Below are positions 3,219-34,840 of a DNA stretch of 44,016 bases, in pieces. Position 1 is the first letter of the stretch. Every line of letters starts with the position of its first letter. Position numbers and translations under genes: made by a program. The stretch lies in sequence record PZ379180.1; one strand, written 5' to 3'. This DNA is from a phage. Under the pieces are notes generated by a model. The model did not search any database. It saw only the letters and a list, made by a program, of their open reading frames with translations, and was not told the origin of the DNA.

Positions 3219-4046
3219 ATGTTAACTATGAACGGTCAGAATCAGGGTGTTAAGACAAAACACCGGGAATGGCTGCATCACTTCGATAAATGGCAGAAGG
3301 TACGCCACGCTCTTGAAGGCGACCTTATCCGCTATCTGCGTAACGTCGGGAAGAACGAGCCTGACCAGACCTACGCAGCACAGCGACAGGAAGAATACGA
3401 GAACGGCGCTATCTGCTACAATTTCACCAAACGCACGCTGGCGGGGATGACGGGGTCAGTGATGCGCAAAGACCCTGAGCAGATTATCCCGCCTGAACTT
3501 GAGTACCTGTTGCACAACGCGGACGGTTCAGGTGTCGGGCTGTGGCAGCACGCGCAGGATACGCTGATGGAGATTAACTCGATAGGCCGTGGCGGGTTGC
3601 TGGTGGACGCCCCGGAAACAGCCGCAGCAACGGCGGCAGAGCAGAACGCGGGATTATTAAACCCGGTAATCGCATTCTATACCGCGGAGAACATTATCAA
3701 CTGGAGACTCACCCGCATCGGTTCAGTGAACCGCGTGACGATGGTTGTATTGCGTGAGGCATGGGAATACTCGGAACCAGGCGCTGAGTTTGAAACAAAA
3801 TTCGGCGAGCAATACCGCGTCCTTGACCTGATTGACGGTCGCTACCGCCAGCGCATCTACCGCTTCGATGCCGAAGGTGGCGCACAGGATGAAGTAATCG
3901 AAATCTTCCCGGAACTCGGCGAACAGTTGCGCGGTAAAATCCCGTTCACGTTCATTGGCGCAAGCAACAACGACGCCACTATAGACGATGCGCCTTTACT
4001 GCCGTTAGCTGAGCTAAATATAGGACACTTCAGAAATTCGTACTGA
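3219..4046 (+). CDS. portal protein, N-terminal fragment (frame break near 4030-4046)
   Basis: Position after terL; 275 aa ORF ends at TGA 4044-4046 and the next frame continues from 4024. Confidence 0.7.
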   Translation: MLTMNGQNQGVKTKHREWLHHFDKWQKVRHALEGDLIRYLRNVGKNEPDQTYAAQRQEEYENGAICYNFTKRTLAGMTGSVMRKDPEQIIPPELEYLLHNADGSGVGLWQHAQDTLMEINSIGRGGLLVDAPETAAATAAEQNAGLLNPVIAFYTAENIINWRLTRIGSVNRVTMVVLREAWEYSEPGAEFETKFGEQYRVLDLIDGRYRQRIYRFDAEGGAQDEVIEIFPELGEQLRGKIPFTFIGASNNDATIDDAPLLPLAELNIGHFRNSY

Positions 4047-4737: not shown

Positions 4738-5814
4738 ATGCTATTAACTTTAGCGCCACAGGGTTTATCTATGAGCTTACTTACATCCCTAATCAGCCAT
4801 CAGATATGGCTGCAACGCACCGCATCCGGTGAAGTGAAAGACCTCACGCCGTTCATTCAGGAGATAAGGGATGAAATCAAACGGCAGGTGCTGTTATTCG
4901 GTGACGACGGTCGCAGCACTGCGCGACTGAATAAACTGTTACGCGACCTGGAAGAAGCACTAACCGGTATTACGGGTGACTGGCAAACAAAGCTAACAGA
5001 CGACCTTAAGGAACTGGCGGCGTACGAGGCTGAGTGGAACGTAAAGACACTGACCGCCAACGTAGACGCGGAATTTGTTACGCCTACCGCTGAGCAGGTA
5101 TGGGCCGCTGCCGAGTTTCAACCATTATCATTGAGCGACAAGCCCGTTGATTTCACCAAGCTGATGTCTGGATGGGGCGAAACGGAAGTAGCACGTCTTG
5201 TAACTGGAGTTAAGATGGGCTTTGTGCAAGGTCAAACCACACGGCAGATTGTTAAGAATGTTGTTGGCGCTGGTGGACTAGCCGACATCTCAGAACGTAA
5301 CGCGACTACGGTAATCCGCACCGCGCTGTCCCACGTATCCAACGAGGCCCGTAACGAGACGTACCGCCAGAACGACGACATCATCGAGAAATATGAGTGG
5401 GTGTCAACTTTGGACAGCCGTACCAGCACGATTTGCAGGGCCAGAGACGGAATGACGTGGGAAATCGGTAAAGGTCCGATGCCACCAGCCCATCCTAATT
5501 GCCGAAGTACCACTGCACCGGTAATCAGTTCAGAGTTCGACTTCCTTGATAAAGGCGCAAAACGCGCGGCTAAAGGCGCGGAAGGTGGCACTCAGGTAAG
5601 CGCAGACACCACTTACTACGAGTTCCTTAAACAACAACCGGCGTGGTTTCAGGACCAGGCGCTCGGCCCGGTGCGAGGTAAGATTTTCCGTAACAGCGGT
5701 ATATCGCCGGAAGAGTTTCGCGTAATATCTGTAGATGGTTTCGGGAATCCGCTCACGCTTAAGCAGATGGCGGAACTCGATAAACGTGTTGCTGATTATC
5801 TGAAAGGGGAATAA
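4738..5814 (+). CDS. head morphogenesis protein (Mu gpF / SPP1 gp7-like)
   Basis: 358 aa, position after portal, composition typical of minor head proteins. Confidence 0.65.
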   Translation: MLLTLAPQGLSMSLLTSLISHQIWLQRTASGEVKDLTPFIQEIRDEIKRQVLLFGDDGRSTARLNKLLRDLEEALTGITGDWQTKLTDDLKELAAYEAEWNVKTLTANVDAEFVTPTAEQVWAAAEFQPLSLSDKPVDFTKLMSGWGETEVARLVTGVKMGFVQGQTTRQIVKNVVGAGGLADISERNATTVIRTALSHVSNEARNETYRQNDDIIEKYEWVSTLDSRTSTICRARDGMTWEIGKGPMPPAHPNCRSTTAPVISSEFDFLDKGAKRAAKGAEGGTQVSADTTYYEFLKQQPAWFQDQALGPVRGKIFRNSGISPEEFRVISVDGFGNPLTLKQMAELDKRVADYLKGE

Positions 5815-12995: not shown

Positions 12996-13408
12996 TGGGC
13001 TACTTTGAGGACTTAACAAAAGCGTTTGATGTGCCGCTGGTAGCCTTCGGAACCACCAACGGCATCAAGGTAGCGCTTGAAAACATCGACGCGCCGACGT
13101 CAACAGATACGCCGTATCTGGCAAGTTACATGTTGCTGGCGGATACCGAGCAGGCTGACTTATTCTTCACGGAACAACGCGCCGGTGTCTATCAGATAGA
13201 CATTAACTACGCATCGGTGAAAGGTAGCGCGCCAATCAATAAAATGGCAGACTTACTTAACACGGCGTTTAAATCAGGTAAGGCATTTTCGCGTAACGAC
13301 ATCTGCGCCGAGGTTCAATCGGTTAGCCTGGGGCCGCTGATTGTAGAAAACGGATGGGCCAAACGACCATTGTCAATTAACTTTATTGCATTCACCAAGA
13401 GGCTGTGA
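12992..13408 (+). CDS. tail completion/terminator protein (putative)
   Basis: 138 aa ORF between gp10-like and major tail genes. Confidence 0.4.
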   Translation: MMGYFEDLTKAFDVPLVAFGTTNGIKVALENIDAPTSTDTPYLASYMLLADTEQADLFFTEQRAGVYQIDINYASVKGSAPINKMADLLNTAFKSGKAFSRNDICAEVQSVSLGPLIVENGWAKRPLSINFIAFTKRL

Positions 13409-14577
13409 ATATGGCTACAACTCCTTTTAAGGGCGCGAATACCGCGCAATTCTATGTGGCGGAAACTACCCTGGGCGTAACACCGGCTAACCCTGTCTGG
13501 TCGCCGTTGCGTAACACTGGCGGTGTTCCTGCCGTAACCCGCGATGCGCTGACTTCCAACGAACTAGACGGCAGCCGTGAAACTACATCCATCCGAACCG
13601 GTAACAAACAGGTTAGCGGGGAGTACGCCATCGAACTTAGCTCTCGTAGCCAGGATGATTTCCTTGCGGGAGCGATGACTTCTACGTGGCAAGCTGGGGT
13701 AGAGATTACTGGCGCCGAAATTACGGTCGCCCCAGCAGGTAAAACATTCACCCGCGCTGCCGGTAGCTTCATTACTGACGGTGTAGAAGTTGGCGACCTT
13801 ATTGCGTTCACCGACTTAACCGGCGACAACGCAAAACCGTTTATCGTGACCGCGGTTTCCGCTCTGGTAGTTACGGGCGCAGGTATTCAGCACACGCTGA
13901 CAGCAGAGAAAGTAACCACTGACGCAAAAACTGGCGACAAGCTGGAAACCAGTAACGCGTGTAAGACGTTCTCCATCCTGACGTGGTTCAAGGGCCAGTG
14001 TGGTAACCCGGACGCGTACATGCTGACCAAAGGTGTGGAAATCTCTGGCTTTACCGTAGAGCAGGCGGTTAACGCCATGGTCACCGGCAGCTTCCCGTTC
14101 ATCGGCCTGAGTCAGGAGATTCTTACCGCGCCGCCGTCTGGCTCTGATTTCTCTCAGGTTACGTTCACCGATGAGCCGTTCTCGTCGGTAGATGTGTCGG
14201 TGTTCGATGGCTCCACGCCGTTGCGTTGCGATACTCTCACCATCACCAACGACAACGGAGCTTCCGCGCAGTTCGAACTCGGTAACAGTAGCGTGGCGTT
14301 CGTCGAACGTGGACGCGCAGCTAACACATTCTCTATCTCTGGCAAGCTGTACGACATGGCGATGATTCAGAAGTTTATCAACGAGCAGCAGGTAGAGATT
14401 AACTCTATTCTGGCAGGGGTAAACGGGGCTATGTCTTTCAGTTTGAAACGTGCAGAGCTTACGGCGGTTACACCTGAGATTGGTGGGCCTGAGTCAATCA
14501 CTCAGTCCATTGAAGGCCAGGCTACCGGCAATCAGTACCAGTCGTCTATCGTAATTCAACGTATCACCTACGCATAA
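13405..14577 (+). CDS. major tail protein
   Basis: 390 aa ORF preceding chaperone/tape-measure genes, followed by terminator. Confidence 0.65.
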   Translation: MNMATTPFKGANTAQFYVAETTLGVTPANPVWSPLRNTGGVPAVTRDALTSNELDGSRETTSIRTGNKQVSGEYAIELSSRSQDDFLAGAMTSTWQAGVEITGAEITVAPAGKTFTRAAGSFITDGVEVGDLIAFTDLTGDNAKPFIVTAVSALVVTGAGIQHTLTAEKVTTDAKTGDKLETSNACKTFSILTWFKGQCGNPDAYMLTKGVEISGFTVEQAVNAMVTGSFPFIGLSQEILTAPPSGSDFSQVTFTDEPFSSVDVSVFDGSTPLRCDTLTITNDNGASAQFELGNSSVAFVERGRAANTFSISGKLYDMAMIQKFINEQQVEINSILAGVNGAMSFSLKRAELTAVTPEIGGPESITQSIEGQATGNQYQSSIVIQRITYA

Positions 14578-14605: not shown

Positions 14606-15160
14606 TTACAAACCTAATTTTAAAGCAATGTCTATAACGTTCGATTTAACGTCACCCGGTATGATGTAGGTGTCGTAATCTTTTACACCACTAACATCGT
14701 ACAGATAGCCACGGCTATCGCAGATGAACGTATAGCCGTCACGATGGAGGCGGACGATTCGCACGTCATGCCCCGCGGCGACGATAGGGGCAACTTCACT
14801 GGCGAATCCACCATCGGACACTACAAAAACTTCGTCGCCGTCAGGCAAGTTTTCAGCAAGATACTTACCGAAATAATCATCGCCGAATACCGGTTTAATG
14901 AATTGCTCAGAAATGGCAATCATTAACCGGCGGCGGGACAACCCATTAAGAAAACCCTCGGGTTTTTCTTTCCGCGCCCGGTCGTCGTAGCCGTCGAGAA
15001 ATTCGTGGTAAGCATCCTGGCCTAACGCTGCCAAAGCAATATTGAACATTGGATTCTTGAAACTGGTAGTTCCTTTCGCAAAGCCCATTTCTACCAGCGC
15101 CATAGCAAGCGTGTCTTTCCCGCAACCCGCAGGGCCATTAAGAATAATTACCTTAGCCAT
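14606..15160 (-). CDS. deoxynucleoside monophosphate kinase (T4 gp1-like P-loop kinase)
   Basis: P-loop GPAGCGKDT and following PMFNIALAALG segment recalled as similar to T4 dNMP kinase. Confidence 0.55.
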   Translation of the reverse strand: MAKVIILNGPAGCGKDTLAMALVEMGFAKGTTSFKNPMFNIALAALGQDAYHEFLDGYDDRARKEKPEGFLNGLSRRRLMIAISEQFIKPVFGDDYFGKYLAENLPDGDEVFVVSDGGFASEVAPIVAAGHDVRIVRLHRDGYTFICDSRGYLYDVSGVKDYDTYIIPGDVKSNVIDIALKLGL

Positions 15161-15648
15161 TATTTATCGCTCCCGTGTGGTTTTAAGTGTGTAGAGTTCC
15201 CGTTACAGTCGTATTCGGTAACTGCGTGTGCGGTTATGCCGAGGTCACGGAAATGCTTTATTACCGCTGGAGAGTCGTCGAACGCACACAAGATTCTTTC
15301 CAGTCCGAAAGCACGCAACACCTCTTCTTTAATTACGATGTCTTTTCTGTTGTCGTGTTTGCTGCGCATGATTAGCGTGTCAAACCTAACGTTATTCTCT
15401 CGTAACCATTCGCGAGTCTCCTCCTCAGCGTCATCACTTCGCCCGGTAAGGATAATTATAGTAAGTCCGGAATGCCACAGTACGCTACACAAATGGATAT
15501 TGTCGTATATCGGAGCGTCATCTTTGCAGGCCATGTTAAATGGCTTCCACGCCCACGTTTCTCCGTAGTTATCTTTTGGTAACAGGTGTAAGCGATGGGT
15601 ACCGTCTACCAATGTCCCGTCTAAATCGAAAATTACAATATCTTTCAT
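15160..15648 (-). CDS. HAD-family phosphatase
   Basis: N-terminal FDLDGTLVD motif (DxDGT); start overlaps upstream gene stop. Confidence 0.6.
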   Translation of the reverse strand: MKDIVIFDLDGTLVDGTHRLHLLPKDNYGETWAWKPFNMACKDDAPIYDNIHLCSVLWHSGLTIIILTGRSDDAEEETREWLRENNVRFDTLIMRSKHDNRKDIVIKEEVLRAFGLERILCAFDDSPAVIKHFRDLGITAHAVTEYDCNGNSTHLKPHGSDK

Positions 15649-16775
15649 CCCAGCATCTCCGGTGAAATAGTTAAACGTGCGACCTCGCCATATTCGGCGC
15701 TATAAGTAATTACATTTGCACTGCGGCCCGACATCCATCCGCCGCGAGAGGCGTAGGCGTCTTTAGCCGCTAAGGTGCGGTGTTGCTCAACAATCATGTT
15801 ACGGCTTTCTACAATCTTCTGGTGGTGCAGATGGCCTACGTGGGCGTAGCTGTAAACACTCTCGCCGAACGCTTTACGGAACTTGGCAATCATAACCGGT
15901 TCGATAGCGTCGAATCGTGCTTTATGCCCGTGATGGAAGAACAGCGTCGTTTTGCCGTGTTGCACCATCTTGTAAACATCCGGCGACGTATCGACGAATA
16001 CACGAGGCTCGTTGTCGTACAGTGTGCTGAACATCTCCGCCAGCCAAATCATCCCGGATTCGTCGTGGTTCCCCTGAACTATAAGCAAGCGAACAGTTTT
16101 ATGCTTAACCAGAGCCATATCAACAACACGGCGGACCATGCGAATCATGTAGCGGACAAGTTTCTGGTAACGCGTGTCGGCGTCAAGGACATGACCACTC
16201 GCCGGTGTAACGGTGTCAAGACTATCGAAGTGAGCTAAGTCGCCAAGAAGATTAATAACCCCCGTACCTGCATCCGGTGCTTTCTGAAACGCAGCATCAA
16301 ACCAACGAGAGAATAAGTCCTCCGCGATTTTCATATCCCAGTCGTCGCCGCTCTCGTCAGCCCAGGCTAACATACCGAGATGGAAATCAGATACCGTGTA
16401 AAGATTGAGTAGTTTATCGTCACGTTTGGCTCGTGCCGGTTTAACAGGCGCAACGGGCGTAATCTCTGACTTCATGCCCTCTATTACGGCTTTCATCAAT
16501 TCAACCTGACGTTCGGCATCAGCGTCGGTCTTAACCCATTGCAACTTAGTGTTGCCGAACTCGTCCACCAGGGACGACGTTCCTTTAATCTTGTAACCGT
16601 CTGGTACAAGGTGACTAACGTCGCGCCCGTGGCCTACGCCTTTCTTAGCCAGCTTCGCTTTACGGATTCGGATAACGCGGTCTGAGATTCCGTATTTACG
16701 GGCGATATCGATATTCTTCATCCCGGCGTTCAATTCTTCCTGTAATTGCTCGTCGGTTATTTTCTTCTGGGCCAT
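15645..16775 (-). CDS. calcineurin-like metallophosphoesterase with N-terminal HTH
   Basis: Motifs DFHLG, LLGDLAHFD, QGNHDE, FFHHGH, GHLHH; N-terminal ARKYGISDRVIRIRKAKL; ATG at 16775 with GAGGAAG RBS (track ORF to 16880). Confidence 0.65.
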   Translation of the reverse strand: MAQKKITDEQLQEELNAGMKNIDIARKYGISDRVIRIRKAKLAKKGVGHGRDVSHLVPDGYKIKGTSSLVDEFGNTKLQWVKTDADAERQVELMKAVIEGMKSEITPVAPVKPARAKRDDKLLNLYTVSDFHLGMLAWADESGDDWDMKIAEDLFSRWFDAAFQKAPDAGTGVINLLGDLAHFDSLDTVTPASGHVLDADTRYQKLVRYMIRMVRRVVDMALVKHKTVRLLIVQGNHDESGMIWLAEMFSTLYDNEPRVFVDTSPDVYKMVQHGKTTLFFHHGHKARFDAIEPVMIAKFRKAFGESVYSYAHVGHLHHQKIVESRNMIVEQHRTLAAKDAYASRGGWMSGRSANVITYSAEYGEVARLTISPEMLG

Positions 16776-16813
16776 GCTTACTTCCTCGTGTTTAGGATTT
16801 GTCTTATAGTAGC

Positions 16814-17032
16814 CTACTTCTCTTTCACGTTCGAGTTGCAAGCCCAGATTAAAATGAATACCCACGGCAACAGAATCCACCCGAGAAATAAGTTAGCCAT
16901 GAATATCGCCAGCTTTGCTTTATGGTTACGCATATGTGCCACCAAAAACGGGATAAAATAAACGGCTACAAAAATAATTAAGAAGAACATAGTGATACCG
17001 GTCATAACATAACTCCTGATTTGAGATAACAT
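16814..17032 (-). CDS. superinfection immunity-like small membrane protein
   Basis: 72 aa, two TM helices, YFIPFLVAHMRNHKAKLAIFMANLFLGW recalled as resembling Imm-superinfection family. Confidence 0.45.
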   Translation of the reverse strand: MLSQIRSYVMTGITMFFLIIFVAVYFIPFLVAHMRNHKAKLAIFMANLFLGWILLPWVFILIWACNSNVKEK

Positions 17033-17034
17033 CG

Positions 17035-17063
17035 TTGGTGTAAGTGAATAGTACGCTATTATA
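17035..17063 (+). promoter_or_regulatory. promoter-like element with AATAG-N4-CTATT palindrome
   Basis: TTGGTG-16-TATTAT with palindrome 17047-17060 in spacer; minus strand reads TATAAT at 17058-17063. Confidence 0.45.
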
Positions 17064-17183
17064 TTGGGGAGTGCAAGTAGTGTGCTAGAATAATTTTGCG
17101 CCTAGTGTCGCACACGAAAAGCGGGTGGTTCCCGTCTGGCGCATTTCCTTTAACCAGTAACCTCTTAACCAAAGGATTAAAGA

Positions 17184-17600
17184 ATGAAACTTTCTGATTT
17201 TTATTACGAAGCGGAAGCCGAAAAGGGCGCACGTATGCCGATACCGCTAAAAGACGGTACTGATTCCGGGGAATGGCTTAATGTTGTTTCTCCTGAGGCG
17301 GACGTTGCCGTTAAGGCTATGCGCGCGTTCACCCTTGCATACCGGGCAGTATTAGGGAAATTAAAACCGCTTCGTGATAAGTGCGAAGAGATGAAAGATT
17401 TCTCTGAATACAACCTGAAGATGGAAGACGCGGCGACGGACCTTAACCGTCAGTTAGCGATTGAATTGGTTAACGGGTGGAGCCTTGACGACGAATTCAA
17501 TAAAGAGAATCTGAACACACTCCTGACGCAATATAAACGACTCGCGGAACTTGTTGTTGTGTTTCATAACGAACAACTGCACCAGCTACAGGAAAAGTAG
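17184..17600 (+). CDS. tail assembly chaperone (G-like)
   Basis: 138 aa acidic ORF immediately upstream of tape measure gene; -1 frame open 17570-17767. Confidence 0.5.
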   Translation: MKLSDFYYEAEAEKGARMPIPLKDGTDSGEWLNVVSPEADVAVKAMRAFTLAYRAVLGKLKPLRDKCEEMKDFSEYNLKMEDAATDLNRQLAIELVNGWSLDDEFNKENLNTLLTQYKRLAELVVVFHNEQLHQLQEK

Positions 17601-17748
17601 ACGCGTTGCTCCAGTTCGCCCGTTGGAACTTCATAACCCGCCACAAACGGCGGGAATTTGACAGTATCGCCGATGGGCATAAAGCCGCGCTAATTGCTAT
17701 GGGGGTTATGCAAGACGCGCCGGATGCAACGCAGGCCGCTGGGCCGGA

Positions 17749-17964
17749 ATGCCCCCTGAGCTACTAACCACATTTGAGAAGTACAGGGAAATTAAATTCA
17801 CCCGCCGAGTGGACGACGACGGCATCAAGATGTACCCGCGCGAGCAATTACGATGGTCAGATTTAGTGGCGTACAGCACCGTTTCAGGCCAGAATATAGG
17901 GATGTTCGAATCCGACATCATCATGAGCTTAGACGCTATTTTCGAGGGTAGAAACGATGGCTGA
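17749..17964 (+). CDS. hypothetical protein, possibly distal part of chaperone frameshift extension
   Basis: 71 aa ORF overlapping tape measure start; frame open from 17683. Confidence 0.3.
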   Translation: MPPELLTTFEKYREIKFTRRVDDDGIKMYPREQLRWSDLVAYSTVSGQNIGMFESDIIMSLDAIFEGRNDG

Positions 17965-19036
17965 TGTAGCTAGTTTAGTAGTAAAAGTAACAGAGCAAGG
18001 CGCGAAAGCCACATCAGACCGTCTTGACAACCTTTCAAAGTCCGCAAAAGTAGCGGGGGCCGCCGTAGCAGGCCTTGCTTCTATCGTAGCGGCTACCGCG
18101 TATAAAGCTGCCCAAGAACTGGTTGACTCACAGCGGCAACTGGACAAGATGTCCGCCAGTTTGAAGACCTTAACAGGAAGTACCCAAGGTGCTAAACAGG
18201 CGCTAAGTATCCTGCAAGATTTTGCCCGCGATACCCCATACGGACTGGAGCAGGCGGTGGAAGGCTTCCGTAAGCTGGTGGCCCTTGGCCTTACCCCATC
18301 CGAGGAGGCGTTGCGGTCCTACGGCAATACCGCATCGGCTATGGGCAAGGACCTTAATCAGATGATTGAGGCGGTAGCCGACGCCAGTACGTTTGAGTTC
18401 GAACGCCTAAAAGAATTCGGCATCAAAGCCAAGCAGAACAAAAACGACGTAGAGTTTACATTCCAGGGGACAACAACCGTAGTTAAGAAAAGCGCTGCCG
18501 ATATTGAGCAGTATTTACTTAATATTGGTAACGTAAATTTTGCCGGTGCCATGGCGGACCAGGCCAACACCCTTAATGGCGCTATCGCGAGCGCCAGTGA
18601 CTCATGGTCGCAGCTAAAAATGACGCTTGCCACCAGTCTTGATGTTGGCGCACTTGCGGAACCTATCAGGTATATCAATGACTTGATCCAGGAATTAAAT
18701 GCGTCTGTTGCTTCCGGTGAATTAGCCGCTGAAATGCAGATGTGGGGGAACATCGCGTCGGAAGTAGGAAGCGCTATCGAGATGTCATTCGACGCTGCGT
18801 TTGGCTTTGTTGGCGATGCCATCAACGGGCTTAATGAACTGTGGGATTTCAGCAGCAAGAGTATTACGGATAGCGGAGAACAAACGGCTACTACCATCGC
18901 TGAATCCACCGCCGATGCGCTTGACTTCATCGCGGAAGAGTTCACCGCGATGGAGAGATTCTTTGAAGATATGGTTAAAGGCGCGCAGGACGCGGGCCGT
19001 CTTGTACGAGCCGCTTTTACCCCAGGGAATCAGTAG
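17957..19036 (+). CDS. tape measure protein, fragment 1
   Basis: Ala/Gln-rich helical 359 aa ORF after chaperone; frame breaks between 18979 and 19036. Confidence 0.75.
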   Translation: MADVASLVVKVTEQGAKATSDRLDNLSKSAKVAGAAVAGLASIVAATAYKAAQELVDSQRQLDKMSASLKTLTGSTQGAKQALSILQDFARDTPYGLEQAVEGFRKLVALGLTPSEEALRSYGNTASAMGKDLNQMIEAVADASTFEFERLKEFGIKAKQNKNDVEFTFQGTTTVVKKSAADIEQYLLNIGNVNFAGAMADQANTLNGAIASASDSWSQLKMTLATSLDVGALAEPIRYINDLIQELNASVASGELAAEMQMWGNIASEVGSAIEMSFDAAFGFVGDAINGLNELWDFSSKSITDSGEQTATTIAESTADALDFIAEEFTAMERFFEDMVKGAQDAGRLVRAAFTPGNQ

Positions 19037-19074
19037 ACGTAGCTAAAAATATCAACTTCCAGCTTGGCCTGGCT

Positions 19075-19371
19075 TTGGATACCCAGCGCGATGTCGCCGA
19101 CGTTACGCGTAAAAGTTTCCGCGAACAGGTAGAAGCTCAACAGGATATTGTAGCGTTAAAACGCGCGGCGTATGACATCGATAAGGAGTCCGCAAAAGCT
19201 GAGGGGTTAAACAAATTTAAGGTAACCGGAACTGGCGGCGGTTCTGACGATGACGGGTCAGCCGCAAAAGCTGCTAAGAAAGCGGCGGACGCGTTCGAGC
19301 GCCAGAAAAAGCGGCGGAAGACTTCTACTATCAGTCAATCCATCTTAATGATGACGTATTTCAGAAAATAG
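19075..19371 (+). CDS. tape measure protein, fragment 2
   Basis: -1 frame open from 18979 to 19371; breaks at A5 run 19306-19310. Confidence 0.6.
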   Translation: MDTQRDVADVTRKSFREQVEAQQDIVALKRAAYDIDKESAKAEGLNKFKVTGTGGGSDDDGSAAKAAKKAADAFERQKKRRKTSTISQSILMMTYFRK

Positions 19372-19400
19372 AAGCTAACCAGGAAGAGCAACTGTCTAAG

Positions 19401-20294
19401 TTGCAGGATTTTTATAGCAATAAGCTTCTTAGCGACCAACAGTACGAAAACGCCAAGACGCAGATTATGCTCTCTGCCGAACAGGCCCGCCAGGAAGAAC
19501 TGGACAAGAAAAGGAAAGAAGCCCAGGAGAAGCAGCAGAAAGGTGATGATTTCATGGCTCAGATTATGGGCCAGAACGCCACCGAGCTTGAGCTTCTGGA
19601 TATTCAGGAACAGCAGAAACTGGCGGTAGCCGATAAGTACCAGGAACAAGGTCTGATTAGCGAGAAGCAGTATCAGGCCGCGCTTAACGCCATCAACGAG
19701 CAGTACGCAACCAAGCGTGCCGACGCAACGGCAACAGCTTTCGGTAACATGGCTTCAAACATCGGGTCTGCGTTGGGCGAGGCTTCTGGTGCGTACAAGG
19801 CATTCGCTATCGTACAGGCCACTATAGCCACGTACACCGCAGCTATCGAGGCGTACAAGTCAACGGCTGCTATCCCTGTAGTCGGTCCGTTCCTGGCCCC
19901 AGTAGCCGCTGCTGCTGCTGTTGGGGCCGGTATGGCGCAGATTTCCGCTATCAGGTCAGCACGTGAACAGGGTGGACAGTTATCCGCCGGGCAGGCTTCC
20001 ACCATCGCCGAACGCGGTAAACCTGAGGTAATTATGCCGGCGGGGGCGTCGCGAGTACGCACCGCGCAACAAATGAAAGAGATTATGGGCCAAAACGGGT
20101 CTTCTTCCGGCCCATCTAATGTTACTATCGTAAACAACACGAGTTCGCAAATCGGCAACGTATCCACCGAGCAGGATGATGAAGGCCGTCTGCGTATCAT
20201 CATAGAAGAGCAAGTTGCTGCATCTTTGCAGAACAGCAACAGTAAGATTAGCAAGGCCCGCAAGGCCACAAGAAACGCGCCGGGGTTTAAATAA
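19401..20294 (+). CDS. tape measure protein, fragment 3
   Basis: Frame open from 19278; Q/E-rich coiled coil and hydrophobic AAIPVVGPFLAPVAAAAAVGAG segment. Confidence 0.7.
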   Translation: MQDFYSNKLLSDQQYENAKTQIMLSAEQARQEELDKKRKEAQEKQQKGDDFMAQIMGQNATELELLDIQEQQKLAVADKYQEQGLISEKQYQAALNAINEQYATKRADATATAFGNMASNIGSALGEASGAYKAFAIVQATIATYTAAIEAYKSTAAIPVVGPFLAPVAAAAAVGAGMAQISAIRSAREQGGQLSAGQASTIAERGKPEVIMPAGASRVRTAQQMKEIMGQNGSSSGPSNVTIVNNTSSQIGNVSTEQDDEGRLRIIIEEQVAASLQNSNSKISKARKATRNAPGFK

Positions 20295-20794
20295 TGAGCG
20301 ACTTATACTTTCCACGTAGCCTTAAGCCGGTGGTATCAAAAGGCTACTCAATGACCAGACGTAACAACGTCTGGAGTGTAGATTTAGCGGGCGGCGGGGT
20401 GCGTCAGGGGCGCGACACGTATTACGACGTGTTCCCGATAAGCGTAACTCTGATTACATCGGCATTGGGGCGGCAGGCGTTTCTGTCGTTCCTAGAAAAA
20501 GTAGACGGCGGTGCGTCAAGTTTCTGGATGGCGCACGACTTCGGCATGGGTATTGAGGATTACCAGGTAACCATTACGTCCACTATCGCCGAGTCCACCG
20601 AAGACGGGATTAACTGGACGATTACTTTCACGGCAACCGCCGAGAAATCGCCGTTCCAGGACCTTGAGAACCAGTGCCTTGTTAACAATCTGCCGGATTT
20701 GTATGGTTGTTATGGTGACGGGTTGGGGTGTTTCCTTAAAGCCTACGGAACCGCACAATCAACGTTTCCACGAATTTGGGAACCGATGCAATGA
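20294..20794 (+). CDS. minor tail protein (M-like)
   Basis: 166 aa ORF directly after tape measure, ATGA overlap. Confidence 0.55.
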   Translation: MSDLYFPRSLKPVVSKGYSMTRRNNVWSVDLAGGGVRQGRDTYYDVFPISVTLITSALGRQAFLSFLEKVDGGASSFWMAHDFGMGIEDYQVTITSTIAESTEDGINWTITFTATAEKSPFQDLENQCLVNNLPDLYGCYGDGLGCFLKAYGTAQSTFPRIWEPMQ

Positions 20795-24238: not shown

Positions 24239-26374
24239 ATGTCAAGCGGATGCGGTGACGTTTTAAGCCTGGCGGATTTACAGACCGCCAAGAAACATCA
24301 GATTTTCGAGGCCGAGGTTATCACTGGCAAATCCGGCGGTGTAGCTACGGGTGCAGACATTGATTACGCAACAAATCAGGTTACGGGACAGACCCAGAAG
24401 ACCATGCCTGCGATATTGAGAGATATTGGATTTGAACCCGCTTCTTTTGATTTTACCACAGGCGGTACCCTCACTTCTTCGGACCGAAATAAAGCCGTTT
24501 TGTGGCCTATGGCGGATGGTGGAGATGGGGATTGGTACTATTGGGAGGGCGCGCTGCCGAAGGTTATCCCGGCCGCATCAACTCCTTCGTCTACTGGTGG
24601 TGTCGCTGAGGGGGCCTGGCGTCCTGTCGGGGATATTCAACTACGCGCACAGCTTGCGTCTAGCGATGACGTGTTTGGCGACATGTTGGTTGCGGTTAAA
24701 CAGCCGTACTATGGTTCTGTACTCCAAACGCAACACAATAAAAACTCCCGAATCCTAGACCTTTACGATTTCAACGGCCTACCATCCAATGCCGATAACA
24801 CATCTGCATTGAATTCGGCCTTATCTGCCATTAACTCTATGGGCGGCGGCTTGCTGCGTATTAATATTCCTGGTGTTTATCTCATATCAGGGACGATAAC
24901 TGTTTACGCAAACACACATATAGTCATGGATGATGGTGTTGTTATTCGCCGAAACTACACAACAGGCGATAGTATGGTGAACCTTGCCCGCAATTCTGCT
25001 AGCAATGTCACTATCTCCGGCGGAGAGTTCGATGGCAACGCGCAAAACATGGGCGATACCGCCTTCAATATTATCTCCAGCACACTGAATACCGACCTCA
25101 AGTTTATAGGGGTTAAGTTCAGTAATGTTTGTGACTACCACTGCATCGACATCGCCGGATGGAAGCGCGTTGTCATTCGTGACTGCGTCTTTTCGGGATT
25201 CAAGTTAGTAGACCCATCACGAAACTATTCGGAAGCCATCCAGCTAGACCCAGGTGATATAAGCATCGGCACACCGACACAATGTAACGATTTGACAGTA
25301 GACAACTGCATCGTCATGCCAAACGCAAACTCTTCGCTCGGCAGTTTTGGCGCTTTGGTGGGAAATCACGCCACCTCATACGGCATACAGGATAACAATA
25401 TAAAAATAATCAATAACACCACAGAGGGGTGTCTTTTTGCCGGTGTTAGGGTTTTCAACTGGAGAAACTACCTTATTGCGGGTAATACATTCAGGGACTC
25501 TACCGGGCGCGGTGTGCACGTAACGCCGTATCCAAACTCAACTAAACCGCAGGGTTCGCGCCACGGTCGCATCGTAAACAATAATTTTATAAATGTACGC
25601 AACCCCGTGCTATTGGTCGCAGCTACCTGGCCCTTCACGGATGCCTCCGATGTTTGGCATGATTACATAGAGATAGTCAACAACTCCATGGAACTAAGTG
25701 AGACGCTCGCCTATGGGATAGATGCAAGATGGTGCCGTAATATCGTCGTATCTGGTAATACCGGTTCGGGCGGGTTGGGGCTTATGTCTATGAGGTTCCC
25801 TAATAAGTTCTCCGTGAAAAACAATACCTGGTCTAACGCTACGAATAATGGTATTTGGATTGCGGAGACCGATGCGACAACATTCATAGGAGCTGGGTTG
25901 ACGGCATTAGGCACTATAGAGGGGAATGTTTTCGAAAATATCGCCTACAATGGCATACATATTAACTGCAAGGCTAACGGCGTTACTATTCGCGGTAACA
26001 CCATGAGCGGTGTCTCTACGGCGGCAACATCCCGCTCCGGCATAACTATAGACTCTGGAGCGAGCAACGTCATAATATCAAACAATTGCATCATGGATAA
26101 TGGTGCGTCGATAAAACCGAACGTTGGTATCATTGCAACAGCTACATGCACAAATGTGCATATGGTGGATAACATCTCCTACGGAGGTGTTTCCCCTATA
26201 AATAACCAAGCCACAGGGAATAGCGTGCTCGTGCATACCGGACCAAATTCACCGATAACAGCAGGCATTGGTGCCCCGGTTGGGTCACAGTACCGTAGAG
26301 TAGATGGGTCCCCCTCAACTAGTTTTTACGTCAAAGAGTCAGGAACAAACTCTATTGGTTGGGTTGCTAAATAA
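24239..26374 (+). CDS. tailspike with right-handed beta-helix (pectate lyase-like) domain
   Basis: 711 aa, repeated N-x-G/T-rich coils (NNIKIINNT, VSGNTGSGG, IRGNTMSG, IISNNCIMDNG); AAAGAGGA RBS. Confidence 0.7.
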   Translation: MSSGCGDVLSLADLQTAKKHQIFEAEVITGKSGGVATGADIDYATNQVTGQTQKTMPAILRDIGFEPASFDFTTGGTLTSSDRNKAVLWPMADGGDGDWYYWEGALPKVIPAASTPSSTGGVAEGAWRPVGDIQLRAQLASSDDVFGDMLVAVKQPYYGSVLQTQHNKNSRILDLYDFNGLPSNADNTSALNSALSAINSMGGGLLRINIPGVYLISGTITVYANTHIVMDDGVVIRRNYTTGDSMVNLARNSASNVTISGGEFDGNAQNMGDTAFNIISSTLNTDLKFIGVKFSNVCDYHCIDIAGWKRVVIRDCVFSGFKLVDPSRNYSEAIQLDPGDISIGTPTQCNDLTVDNCIVMPNANSSLGSFGALVGNHATSYGIQDNNIKIINNTTEGCLFAGVRVFNWRNYLIAGNTFRDSTGRGVHVTPYPNSTKPQGSRHGRIVNNNFINVRNPVLLVAATWPFTDASDVWHDYIEIVNNSMELSETLAYGIDARWCRNIVVSGNTGSGGLGLMSMRFPNKFSVKNNTWSNATNNGIWIAETDATTFIGAGLTALGTIEGNVFENIAYNGIHINCKANGVTIRGNTMSGVSTAATSRSGITIDSGASNVIISNNCIMDNGASIKPNVGIIATATCTNVHMVDNISYGGVSPINNQATGNSVLVHTGPNSPITAGIGAPVGSQYRRVDGSPSTSFYVKESGTNSIGWVAK

Positions 26375-34084: not shown

Positions 34085-34840
34085 TCAGGTTCTTTTACCC
34101 CGGAAATAGGCATCAAGAGCCAACAGCGCCCGTTTCTGTGCAAACTTAGCGAACAGTTCCAGACCTTCAACCGAGATGTCCCACTCCGATGCACCGCCAG
34201 CGTACGGCTGGAAGATGACCAGTCGAACGGTTGTTATGCTATAACGTCTCTTGAGTCGGCGATAAACGCCGAGAGCATAAAGCATAAGCTGCTTGTTTTC
34301 TTTCGCTTCGACACGATGCCGCCCGGTTTTCAGGTCGCAGATGATAAGCATGTGTTCGTCGGTGTTAGCCAGTTCCTGTATGGCAACAAGGTCAGCAGTT
34401 CCGAACGTCTCAACGCCTTCATACCCCGGATGCAATACCTCAGTAAGATTAACACGCATTTCCAGCTTGGCGTAAGTCGCTATATCGATAATCGCCTTGC
34501 AGTAGTCGGTGTACTTGCGCACCTGCTCAATCATGTCCGCCGTAATCAGTACCGCGCCTTTCATCGGGCTGATTAGTGCCTTAATCTGGCCTTTGCCTTC
34601 ATCCAGCACGTAAGCACCGACTTCACGCTCTAACGGCAGCGCAGTTCCGCGAATATAAGCGTTGAGATGGACCTCAGCTATGGTGTGCATTGCCGTGCCT
34701 AATACAGCGGCTTTACCTGACGTGTTAGGGGTATCTTTTTCACAGGCCAGTGATGCCGCGCAACTTAGCCACTTTTTAGCCCCTGACGGCGACAGTAAGG
34801 CATGTACATCGTTATTGCCGCCGCGTTCTTTAAGAATCAT
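34085..34840 (-). CDS. PD-(D/E)xK nuclease, Cas4/RecB-like (N-terminal part)
   Basis: ICDLKTG (D-x-K) and QLMLYALG (Q-x-x-x-Y) motifs; N-terminal Cys. Confidence 0.6.
   Translation of the reverse strand: MILKERGGNNDVHALLSPSGAKKWLSCAASLACEKDTPNTSGKAAVLGTAMHTIAEVHLNAYIRGTALPLEREVGAYVLDEGKGQIKALISPMKGAVLITADMIEQVRKYTDYCKAIIDIATYAKLEMRVNLTEVLHPGYEGVETFGTADLVAIQELANTDEHMLIICDLKTGRHRVEAKENKQLMLYALGVYRRLKRRYSITTVRLVIFQPYAGGASEWDISVEGLELFAKFAQKRALLALDAYFRGKRT

Follow-up and report, generated by a model that had tools for sequence, protein, structure and literature searches.

Layout of the tail chaperone region

The window, the whole stretch of 44,016 nucleotides analysed here (PZ379180.1), is a Kagunavirus (Guernseyvirinae) genome that is ~98% identical to phages fEg-Eco06 and Golestan. 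Using positions 17000-20400 as a megablast query, we found 307 matching phage records, the best of which were Escherichia phages fEg-Eco06, phiEc3, and Golestan (~98%); the best-matching relatives all belong to Kagunavirus, subfamily Guernseyvirinae. In these relatives, the tape measure gene of the region is intact (779 aa), and it is preceded by a 'tail assembly chaperone' of 138 aa and an ORF of 119 aa whose label varies between second chaperone and hypothetical.

The features described here are on the + strand. Gene G, the tail assembly chaperone gene (17184-17600, 138 aa, frame 0), was identified from the ORF list, Pfam, and PHROG, and we confirmed that it ends CAG GAA AAG TAG (17589-17600), as the earlier note had read it. 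G of the window is 100% identical to G of fEg-Eco06 and matches Pfam family PF08748 (Phage_TAC_4) with 32.5 bits versus a cut-off of 21.1. The domain that follows, T, is in two pieces. Its N-terminal part (17597-17767) is in the -1 frame, which is open from 17570 to 17767 after a TAA at 17567-17569 and is closed by a premature TAA (17765-17767) that results from a deletion. Its C-terminal part (17752-17964), recognized by tblastn and by Pfam as Phage_TAC_18, is in the third frame, which is open from 17683 to 17964 after a TAA at 17680-17682. Hence, both open frames are where they had been placed before. The TGA that closes T (17962-17964) is 8 nt past the ATG of the tape measure gene at 17957, and the two genes overlap at ATGGCTGA. 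The tape measure gene itself spans 17957-20294 and is present as three ORFs (17957-19036, 19075-19371, and 19401-20294).

The intact T of a relative matches PF23812 (Phage_TAC_18) with 67.2 bits versus a cut-off of 27. Within phrog_15027 ('tail assembly chaperone', 259 positions), G corresponds to positions 1-138 and T to positions 143-259, so this profile was evidently built on fused proteins. Searches of the chaperone proteins against NCBIfam gave no matches, and a PDB sequence search gave no relatives of them. G and T are directly upstream of the tape measure gene, as a lambda-type chaperone pair requires. Between the tail tube gene (13405-14577) and G are 2.6 kb of reverse-strand genes (14606-17032), and the relatives are arranged alike.

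To locate the second frame change, the window was aligned base by base with two close relatives, fEg-Eco06 and Golestan. We found that a run of five C at 17752-17756 is a run of six C in the relatives, i.e. a 1-nt deletion splits T. As written, T of the window is interrupted after 56 codons, and a fusion would end at 17767. The earlier note had expected this second frame change to be an indel, and this holds: one C is missing from the run, and residues 50-119 of T align by tblastn with window positions 17752-17961 in frame 1 at 100% identity. Two further single-base deletions in the aligned stretch, near 19020 and near 19310, split the tape measure gene into its three ORFs (three tblastn frames), and over the 3.4-kb stretch each of the 12 closest relatives has 3 more bases. 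With the fEg-Eco06 proteins as tblastn queries, seven frame breaks were found in essential genes of the window (portal, tail completion, T, tape measure twice, DNA polymerase, and PD-(D/E)XK nuclease); the four outside the aligned stretch are near 4040, 12453, 31532, and 34092. Both sides of each break retain 90-100% protein identity, with no decay in the displaced segments.

Since a phage with all seven breaks would be inviable and since the displaced segments are undecayed, we read the breaks as sequence errors, and we attribute the deletion at 17752-17756, which is unique to the window, to such an error rather than to biology. Were it real, the phage would make a truncated G-T protein of 194 aa or no functional T, and the downstream part would be a remnant or would be reached by a second recoding event. 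The sequence as given does have five C, and a C-run could in principle allow a +1 or -1 correction; however, the displaced T segment is identical in protein to that of the relatives, the same window has six further breaks that are incompatible with a viable phage, and T is intact, with P188-E189-C190-P191 invariant, in every complete family sequence. We therefore consider a real deletion very unlikely.

Frame relation and initiation of T

Relatives of the module were collected from 69 IMG/VR loci, three distant G homologs (Logan assemblies), and annotated GenBank records, which yielded 71 distinct G..T sequences with 45-100% aa identity; 46 metagenome loci were added as a further comparison. 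A protein homology search with the G-T fusion gave five matches, three of which led to distant loci, and a genome contig search recovered a single locus.

We found T in the -1 frame relative to G in 71 of the 71 distinct sequences, and the metagenome loci that span the junction have the same relation. T extends 359-365 nt beyond the stop of G, and the +1 frame is soon closed. The downstream frame, whose loss from relatives would have counted against a fusion, is conserved: T is one uninterrupted -1 ORF in each of the complete family members. Residues V139 to P188-E189-C190 of T are conserved family-wide, and T is conserved at the protein level while its synonymous codons vary freely.

An alternative to frameshifting is that T is a separate gene, started at TTG 17606, for which AGGA (17590-17593) would serve as the ribosome binding site. 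Most database records of the window's own clade present it so, with an annotated 119-aa ORF; the TTG is 6 nt past the stop of G and the AGGA 12 nt upstream of it in the window, Golestan, fEg-Eco06, SETP7, wksl3, XY1, and Shashou. A 12-nt spacing is long for E. coli. Across the family, the codon annotated as the start (Leu142) is CTG in 48 of 70 distinct relatives and TTG in the other 22, and in 27 of the 70, the T frame has no ATG, GTG, or TTG until 81-99 nt downstream, which is at least 27 codons into conserved T. Similarly, an SD-like tetramer upstream of T is absent in 32 of the 70 (counted over the 14 nt ending at the stop of G). The stretch of T ahead of these potential starts (FDSIADGH...ALIAMG) is invariant as protein with variable codons; since it is kept without a start codon, it should be translated only by ribosomes coming from G in these 27 of 70 lineages. 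A ribosome binding site and start codon would also not account for the absence of AAA in place of AAG and of GAG in place of GAA, for a stop that abuts AAG, or for the lack of TGA among the stops. On the start-codon and SD counts, we rejected independent initiation of T for the family, and as an account of the window, in place of a frameshift, it is improbable, even with the statement of the Shashou paper that a canonical slippery sequence is lacking. Some initiation at the TTG could occur in the window's clade alongside frameshifting.

The lack of a start codon is clear for the family and ambiguous for the window taken alone, which has the TTG.

Conserved elements at the junction

The candidate shift site is G_GAA_AAG (17591-17597), whose core, A_AAG (17594-17597), is conserved among 71 relatives. 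After a 1-nt backward slip, the ribosome would read AAA and then GTA GAC GCG in the -1 frame. In all relatives of the window's clade, GGAAAAG extends over the final two sense codons of G, and this position and its conservation exceed chance. As a bare heptamer, it is present at chance in the window (six copies versus 5.66 expected).

To define what is conserved, we compared the junctions of the 71 distinct sequences. G_GAA_AAG_TAG is the most frequent (42), followed by G_GAA_AAG_TAA (11), C_GCA_AAG_TAR (9), A_GCA_AAG_TAA (3), and G_GTA_AAG_TAG (3), with single occurrences of G_GCA_AAG_TAG, G_GGA_AAG_TAG, and GCA_AAG_TTA_TAG, the last (L060) having one sense codon before the stop. AAG is thus kept in 71 of 71 sequences, and A_AAG is followed directly by the stop in 70 of 71 distinct relatives. 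The codon 5' of AAG is always GNA (GAA, GGA, GCA, or GTA), and re-pairing in the -1 frame is possible only for GGA. The exact lambda heptamer, G_GGA_AAG, is present at the homologous position in two loci (L041 and L113). In two others (L057 and L062), no more than 10 nt separate the opening of the -1 frame from the end of the G stop (taa CGC AAA GTA), which pins the shift to this spot in these sequences. In a distant homolog with 30% identity (L129), the opening of the -1 frame coincides exactly with a canonical T_TTT_TTT. The particular signal is thus younger than the need for a shift.

GGAAAAG does not fit the canonical X_XXY_YYZ heptamer, as tRNA-Glu would face GGA after the shift, so we rejected it as a canonical site; the canonical form is confined to L041, L113, and L129. 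This weakens only the description of the site as a canonical lambda-type signal and would leave a G/GT-like working of the module unaffected. Of the earlier proposal of a slip on GGAAAAG, the position and the conservation therefore stand and the canonical form does not; the element found family-wide is A_AAG with the adjoining stop.

A codon alignment of the 71 fusions corroborates the position of the element. Of the 202 columns informative for synonymous change, only seven are monomorphic; five of these are at the junction (Q136 CAG, E137 GAA, K138 AAG, D140 GAC, and A141 GCG), and the other two (D259 and G260) are at the overlap of T with the tape measure gene. V139 is GTA in 70 of 71 sequences, and nearby codons for Leu, Ala, Phe, and Tyr are free to vary. 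Double coding cannot explain the junction block since G is untranslated past its stop and T is untranslated before the slip. Hence, the block, ~18 nt long, points to a functional RNA or DNA element.

The stop of G (TAG, 17598-17600) directly follows the slip codon and is conserved in this position in 70 relatives. We found TAG in 50 of them, TAA in 20, and TGA in none, and the base after the stop is A in 64 and C in six, never T or G. In comparison, the 76 genes of fEg-Eco06, used as a control, end with TAA (36), TGA (33), or TAG (7), followed by T in 32 genes and by G in 14. The absence of TGA is not due to protein coding, since with TGA the T frame would read GTG and still encode Val. The stop also adjoins the slip codon in all junction-spanning metagenome loci except the distant homolog L129. 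A or C after a stop codon is a weak termination context. These results suggest that the stop of G is likely a pausing element, a 'shifty stop'.

A block conserved at the nucleotide level among the 71 relatives, GCGTTG in the window (17603-17608) and GCGYTG in the family, is 3' of the slip site. Ala141 is GCG in 71 of 71 sequences and Leu142 is only CTG (49) or TTG (22), whereas the other Ala and Leu codons of the family use four to six synonyms. Columns 13-15, 17, and 18 of the nucleotide alignment (A2), which cover this block, are invariant. The exception among the metagenome loci is L120, which has TCG.

We also searched for stimulators of the shift. RNAalifold, run on 52 distinct sequences from the slip site to +112, gave no conserved RNA structure beyond a 3-bp stem at -0.34 kcal/mol. 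A long-range stem joining GCGYUG, 5 nt after the slip, to Ala-Ala-Leu codons ~85 nt downstream (columns 13-18 with 95-100) is 85.6% paired; it was rejected, having no compensatory change and being broken in several clades. Its apparent enrichment (0.34 versus 0.06) arises because both arms encode Ala-Leu as self-complementary GCGC, and the pairing probability of GCGYUG equals that of shuffled controls (0.80 versus 0.72). For the window itself, the 110 nt fold unusually stably (-40.1 kcal/mol, z = -3.3), with z from +1.6 to -2.8 in other clades; hence, a clade-specific RNA structure at the window's junction is possible. The sequence upstream of the slip site differs between lineages, and scanning around the junction for promoters and terminators gave no relevant hit on the + strand.

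Proposed expression of G and G-T, and comparison with known systems

Taken together, the comparative data make it highly probable that G and T are expressed as a lambda-like G/GT pair through a -1 slip on A_AAG. The earlier note had proposed that a -1 slip next to the stop of G yields a G-T fusion, and family profiles, the frame relation, the missing start codons, and the codon conservation at the junction all support it. Most ribosomes would stop at TAG 17598-17600 and release G (138 aa), and a minority would slip back 1 nt on A_AAG (17594-17597) and go on in the -1 frame. The product would be a G-T fusion, joined as ...LQEK|VDALLQFAR... and 260 aa long in intact relatives. If it works as in lambda, its G part would bind the tape measure protein and the T part would recruit the tail tube protein.

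The slip would be a one-tRNA event, in which tRNA-Lys moves from AAG to AAA, because the tRNA on GAA could not properly re-pair with GGA. Slow decoding of a stop codon favours slippage of the peptidyl-tRNA. At this junction, the adjacent stop in the A site, slow and poorly terminating, would give peptidyl-tRNA-Lys time to slip. Alternatively, slippage may take place during translocation across GAA-AAG; sequence alone cannot separate the two timings. The ratio of G to GT in lambda is 30:1 (PMC5009743), and a ratio like this one requires that slippage be inefficient.

Slippage of RNA polymerase, rather than of the ribosome, could also be considered as the source of a fusion. There is a run of four A at 17593-17596, but productive transcriptional slippage needs much longer homopolymers, roughly 7-9 or more (reviewed in PMC5009743), and the arrangement is kept in the GCA_AAG and GTA_AAG lineages, which have only three A. 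We rejected this origin for the shortness of the A-run and regard its probability as negligible.

A wider reading is that the Guernseyvirinae use a minimal -1 signal as their standard device, consisting of A_AAG with a single slippery tRNA-Lys, a directly adjoining UAG or UAA (never UGA) stop in a weak context (A or C next), and GCGYUG 5 nt downstream. We offer this generalization tentatively, and we think it rather less probable than not. If true, it would define a '-1 shifty stop' class of recoding that has neither a canonical heptamer nor a conserved RNA structure, and GCGYUG would act in an undescribed way, e.g. through contact with the ribosome or with rRNA. To our knowledge, no phage chaperone family has been tested for a -1 shifty stop as its standard signal.

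The feature is already known and annotated in a sister lineage, and its mechanism is an established one; its annotation is inconsistent. In K1ind2 (GU196280), the same region carries a two-piece joined CDS, ORF21B, next to ORF21A (ADA82418.1). The 260-aa fusion deposited for this phage (ADA82419.1 / YP_009597354.1, 'tail assembly chaperone'), which is a UniRef100 entry with seven Kagunavirus members, is exactly the 260-aa product deduced here and thus backs the claim of a G-T protein. K1ind2 is of the same genus as the window and has an orthologous module with an identical junction (CAG GAA AAG TAG ACG CG), although its G-T has ~55% aa identity to that of the window and, with CTG at Leu142, its T is without a start codon. 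For the window's clade, the 138-aa and 119-aa proteins are deposited separately, and its 260-aa fusion is absent from the protein collection. Shashou, whose junction is identical to that of the window, is recorded with AGGA as the ribosome binding site and TTG as the start of T, and its genome paper reports no canonical slippery sequence. Our literature search found no experimental test of a frameshift or fusion for the Guernseyvirinae (Kagunavirus, Jerseyvirus).

Most records of the group, including RefSeq entries and the Shashou paper, list a separate T started at TTG, some of them stating that a slippery sequence is lacking, and the comparative data argue for a joined CDS instead, like that of K1ind2. 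For prediction tools, the junction offers a clean natural case of a non-canonical one-tRNA A_AAG site beside a stop. The gains are modest: a correction of annotation for the subfamily, a definition of the signal as A_AAG + UAR + GCGYUG, and the recognition of seven error-like indels.

Among known recoding sites, A_AAG (Z_ZZN) is a minimal -1 site in bacteria, and the single tRNA-Lys of E. coli reads both AAA and AAG (PMC5009743). Natural one-tRNA sites are G_CGA_AAG of IS1222 and A_CGA_AAG of B. subtilis cdd, where the 5' codon sets the efficiency (PMC5009743). As in these, tRNA-Lys alone would slip from AAG to AAA at low efficiency, and GAA AAG is in phase with G in the window (17592-17597), with AAA in the -1 frame; unlike them, the window's family has GNA rather than CGA as the 5' codon and a stop adjacent to the slip codon, and we found no conserved downstream structure. 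Counting against the proposed slip, G_GAA_AAG is said to be unfavourable for slippage, only one tRNA being able to re-pair, and Peng et al. used AUG GAA AAG as a 'less slippery' control, in which tRNA-Glu would face GGA (PMC6924986). The 'shifty stop', as PMC5009743 cites it from Weiss, Dunn, Atkins & Gesteland 1987, is similar in that a stop codon comes directly after a slippery run, although its best-known natural cases are +1 (prfB, antizyme).

The closest parallel in arrangement is lambda g-t, for which PMC5009743 describes low-level -1 frameshifting at G_GGA_AAG (citing Levin, Hendrix & Casjens 1993) and cites Xu, Hendrix & Duda 2004 and 2013 on the G/GT chaperones; the comparison is one of arrangement, and the Pfam families assigned in the window are Phage_TAC_4 and Phage_TAC_18. 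Unlike lambda, the window has GAA as the P-site codon, so the second tRNA cannot re-pair; its slip codon abuts the stop, and its tube gene is split from G by a reverse-strand block. As in lambda, a pair of chaperone ORFs immediately precedes the tape measure gene, and the second ORF is in the -1 frame and overlaps the 3' end of its partner; a single tRNA-Lys reads AAG, the slip codon in the A site, and the fusion would be expected at a low level.

Frame breaks along the window

We found seven single-frame breaks in the window, all of them within conserved essential genes. These fall in the portal gene (~4040), the tail completion gene (~12453), the second chaperone part T (17752-17756), the tape measure gene (two breaks, ~19020 and ~19310), the DNA polymerase gene (~31532) and the PD-(D/E)XK nuclease gene (~34092-34106). 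Protein identity to the close Kagunavirus relative fEg-Eco06 is 90-100% on either side of each break, and several of the breaks lie at homopolymer runs. All seven look like assembly or sequencing indels.

The chaperone locus and its homologs

Five nucleotides 3' of the A_AAG slip site proposed for the -1 frameshift (17594-17597), the block GCGYTG (17603-17608; columns 13-18 of the nucleotide alignment of this region) has invariant synonymous positions. Among the 71 distinct G..T sequences, the codon for Ala141 of the G-T fusion is GCG in 71/71, and Leu142 is encoded only by CTG or TTG; the sole exception to the block comes from the metagenome loci, where L120 has TCG.

Two other homologous loci are unusual. 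In L012 (IMGVR_UViG_638275545_000001), the reading frame of the G homolog is interrupted by a TGA once 100 codons have been read; its database entry, too, probably carries an indel. A Jerseyvirus-like G-T module of 93% identity was found in the Bacteroidota genome assembly of Taishania pollutisoli (L083; NZ_JACVEL010000023.1), carried on a 13-kb scaffold; the assembly looks contaminated by an enterobacterial phage.

The usual order of tail tube, G, T and tape measure genes is interrupted in the window, where a block of reverse-strand genes (14606-17032) separates the tail tube gene from the chaperone gene. The block encodes a dNMP kinase, a polynucleotide kinase, a DNA repair exonuclease or phosphatase, and a superinfection immunity protein; relatives share this layout.

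Head and tail genes compared with fEg-Eco06

The minor head protein (4738-5814) lacks the intein that interrupts its fEg-Eco06 homolog: fEg-Eco06 residues ~223-519 are missing, and ~895 nt are absent from the window. The gene 3' of the tape measure (20294-20794) encodes 166 aa, compared with 465 aa for the fEg-Eco06 'tail tip protein M', and the match between them is limited to the first 163 residues of the latter. The match of the tailspike (24239-26374) to fEg-Eco06 is confined to the first 143 residues (65% identity), and its receptor-binding part is unlike that of fEg-Eco06. Such divergence of the receptor-binding part is usual for host-range modules.
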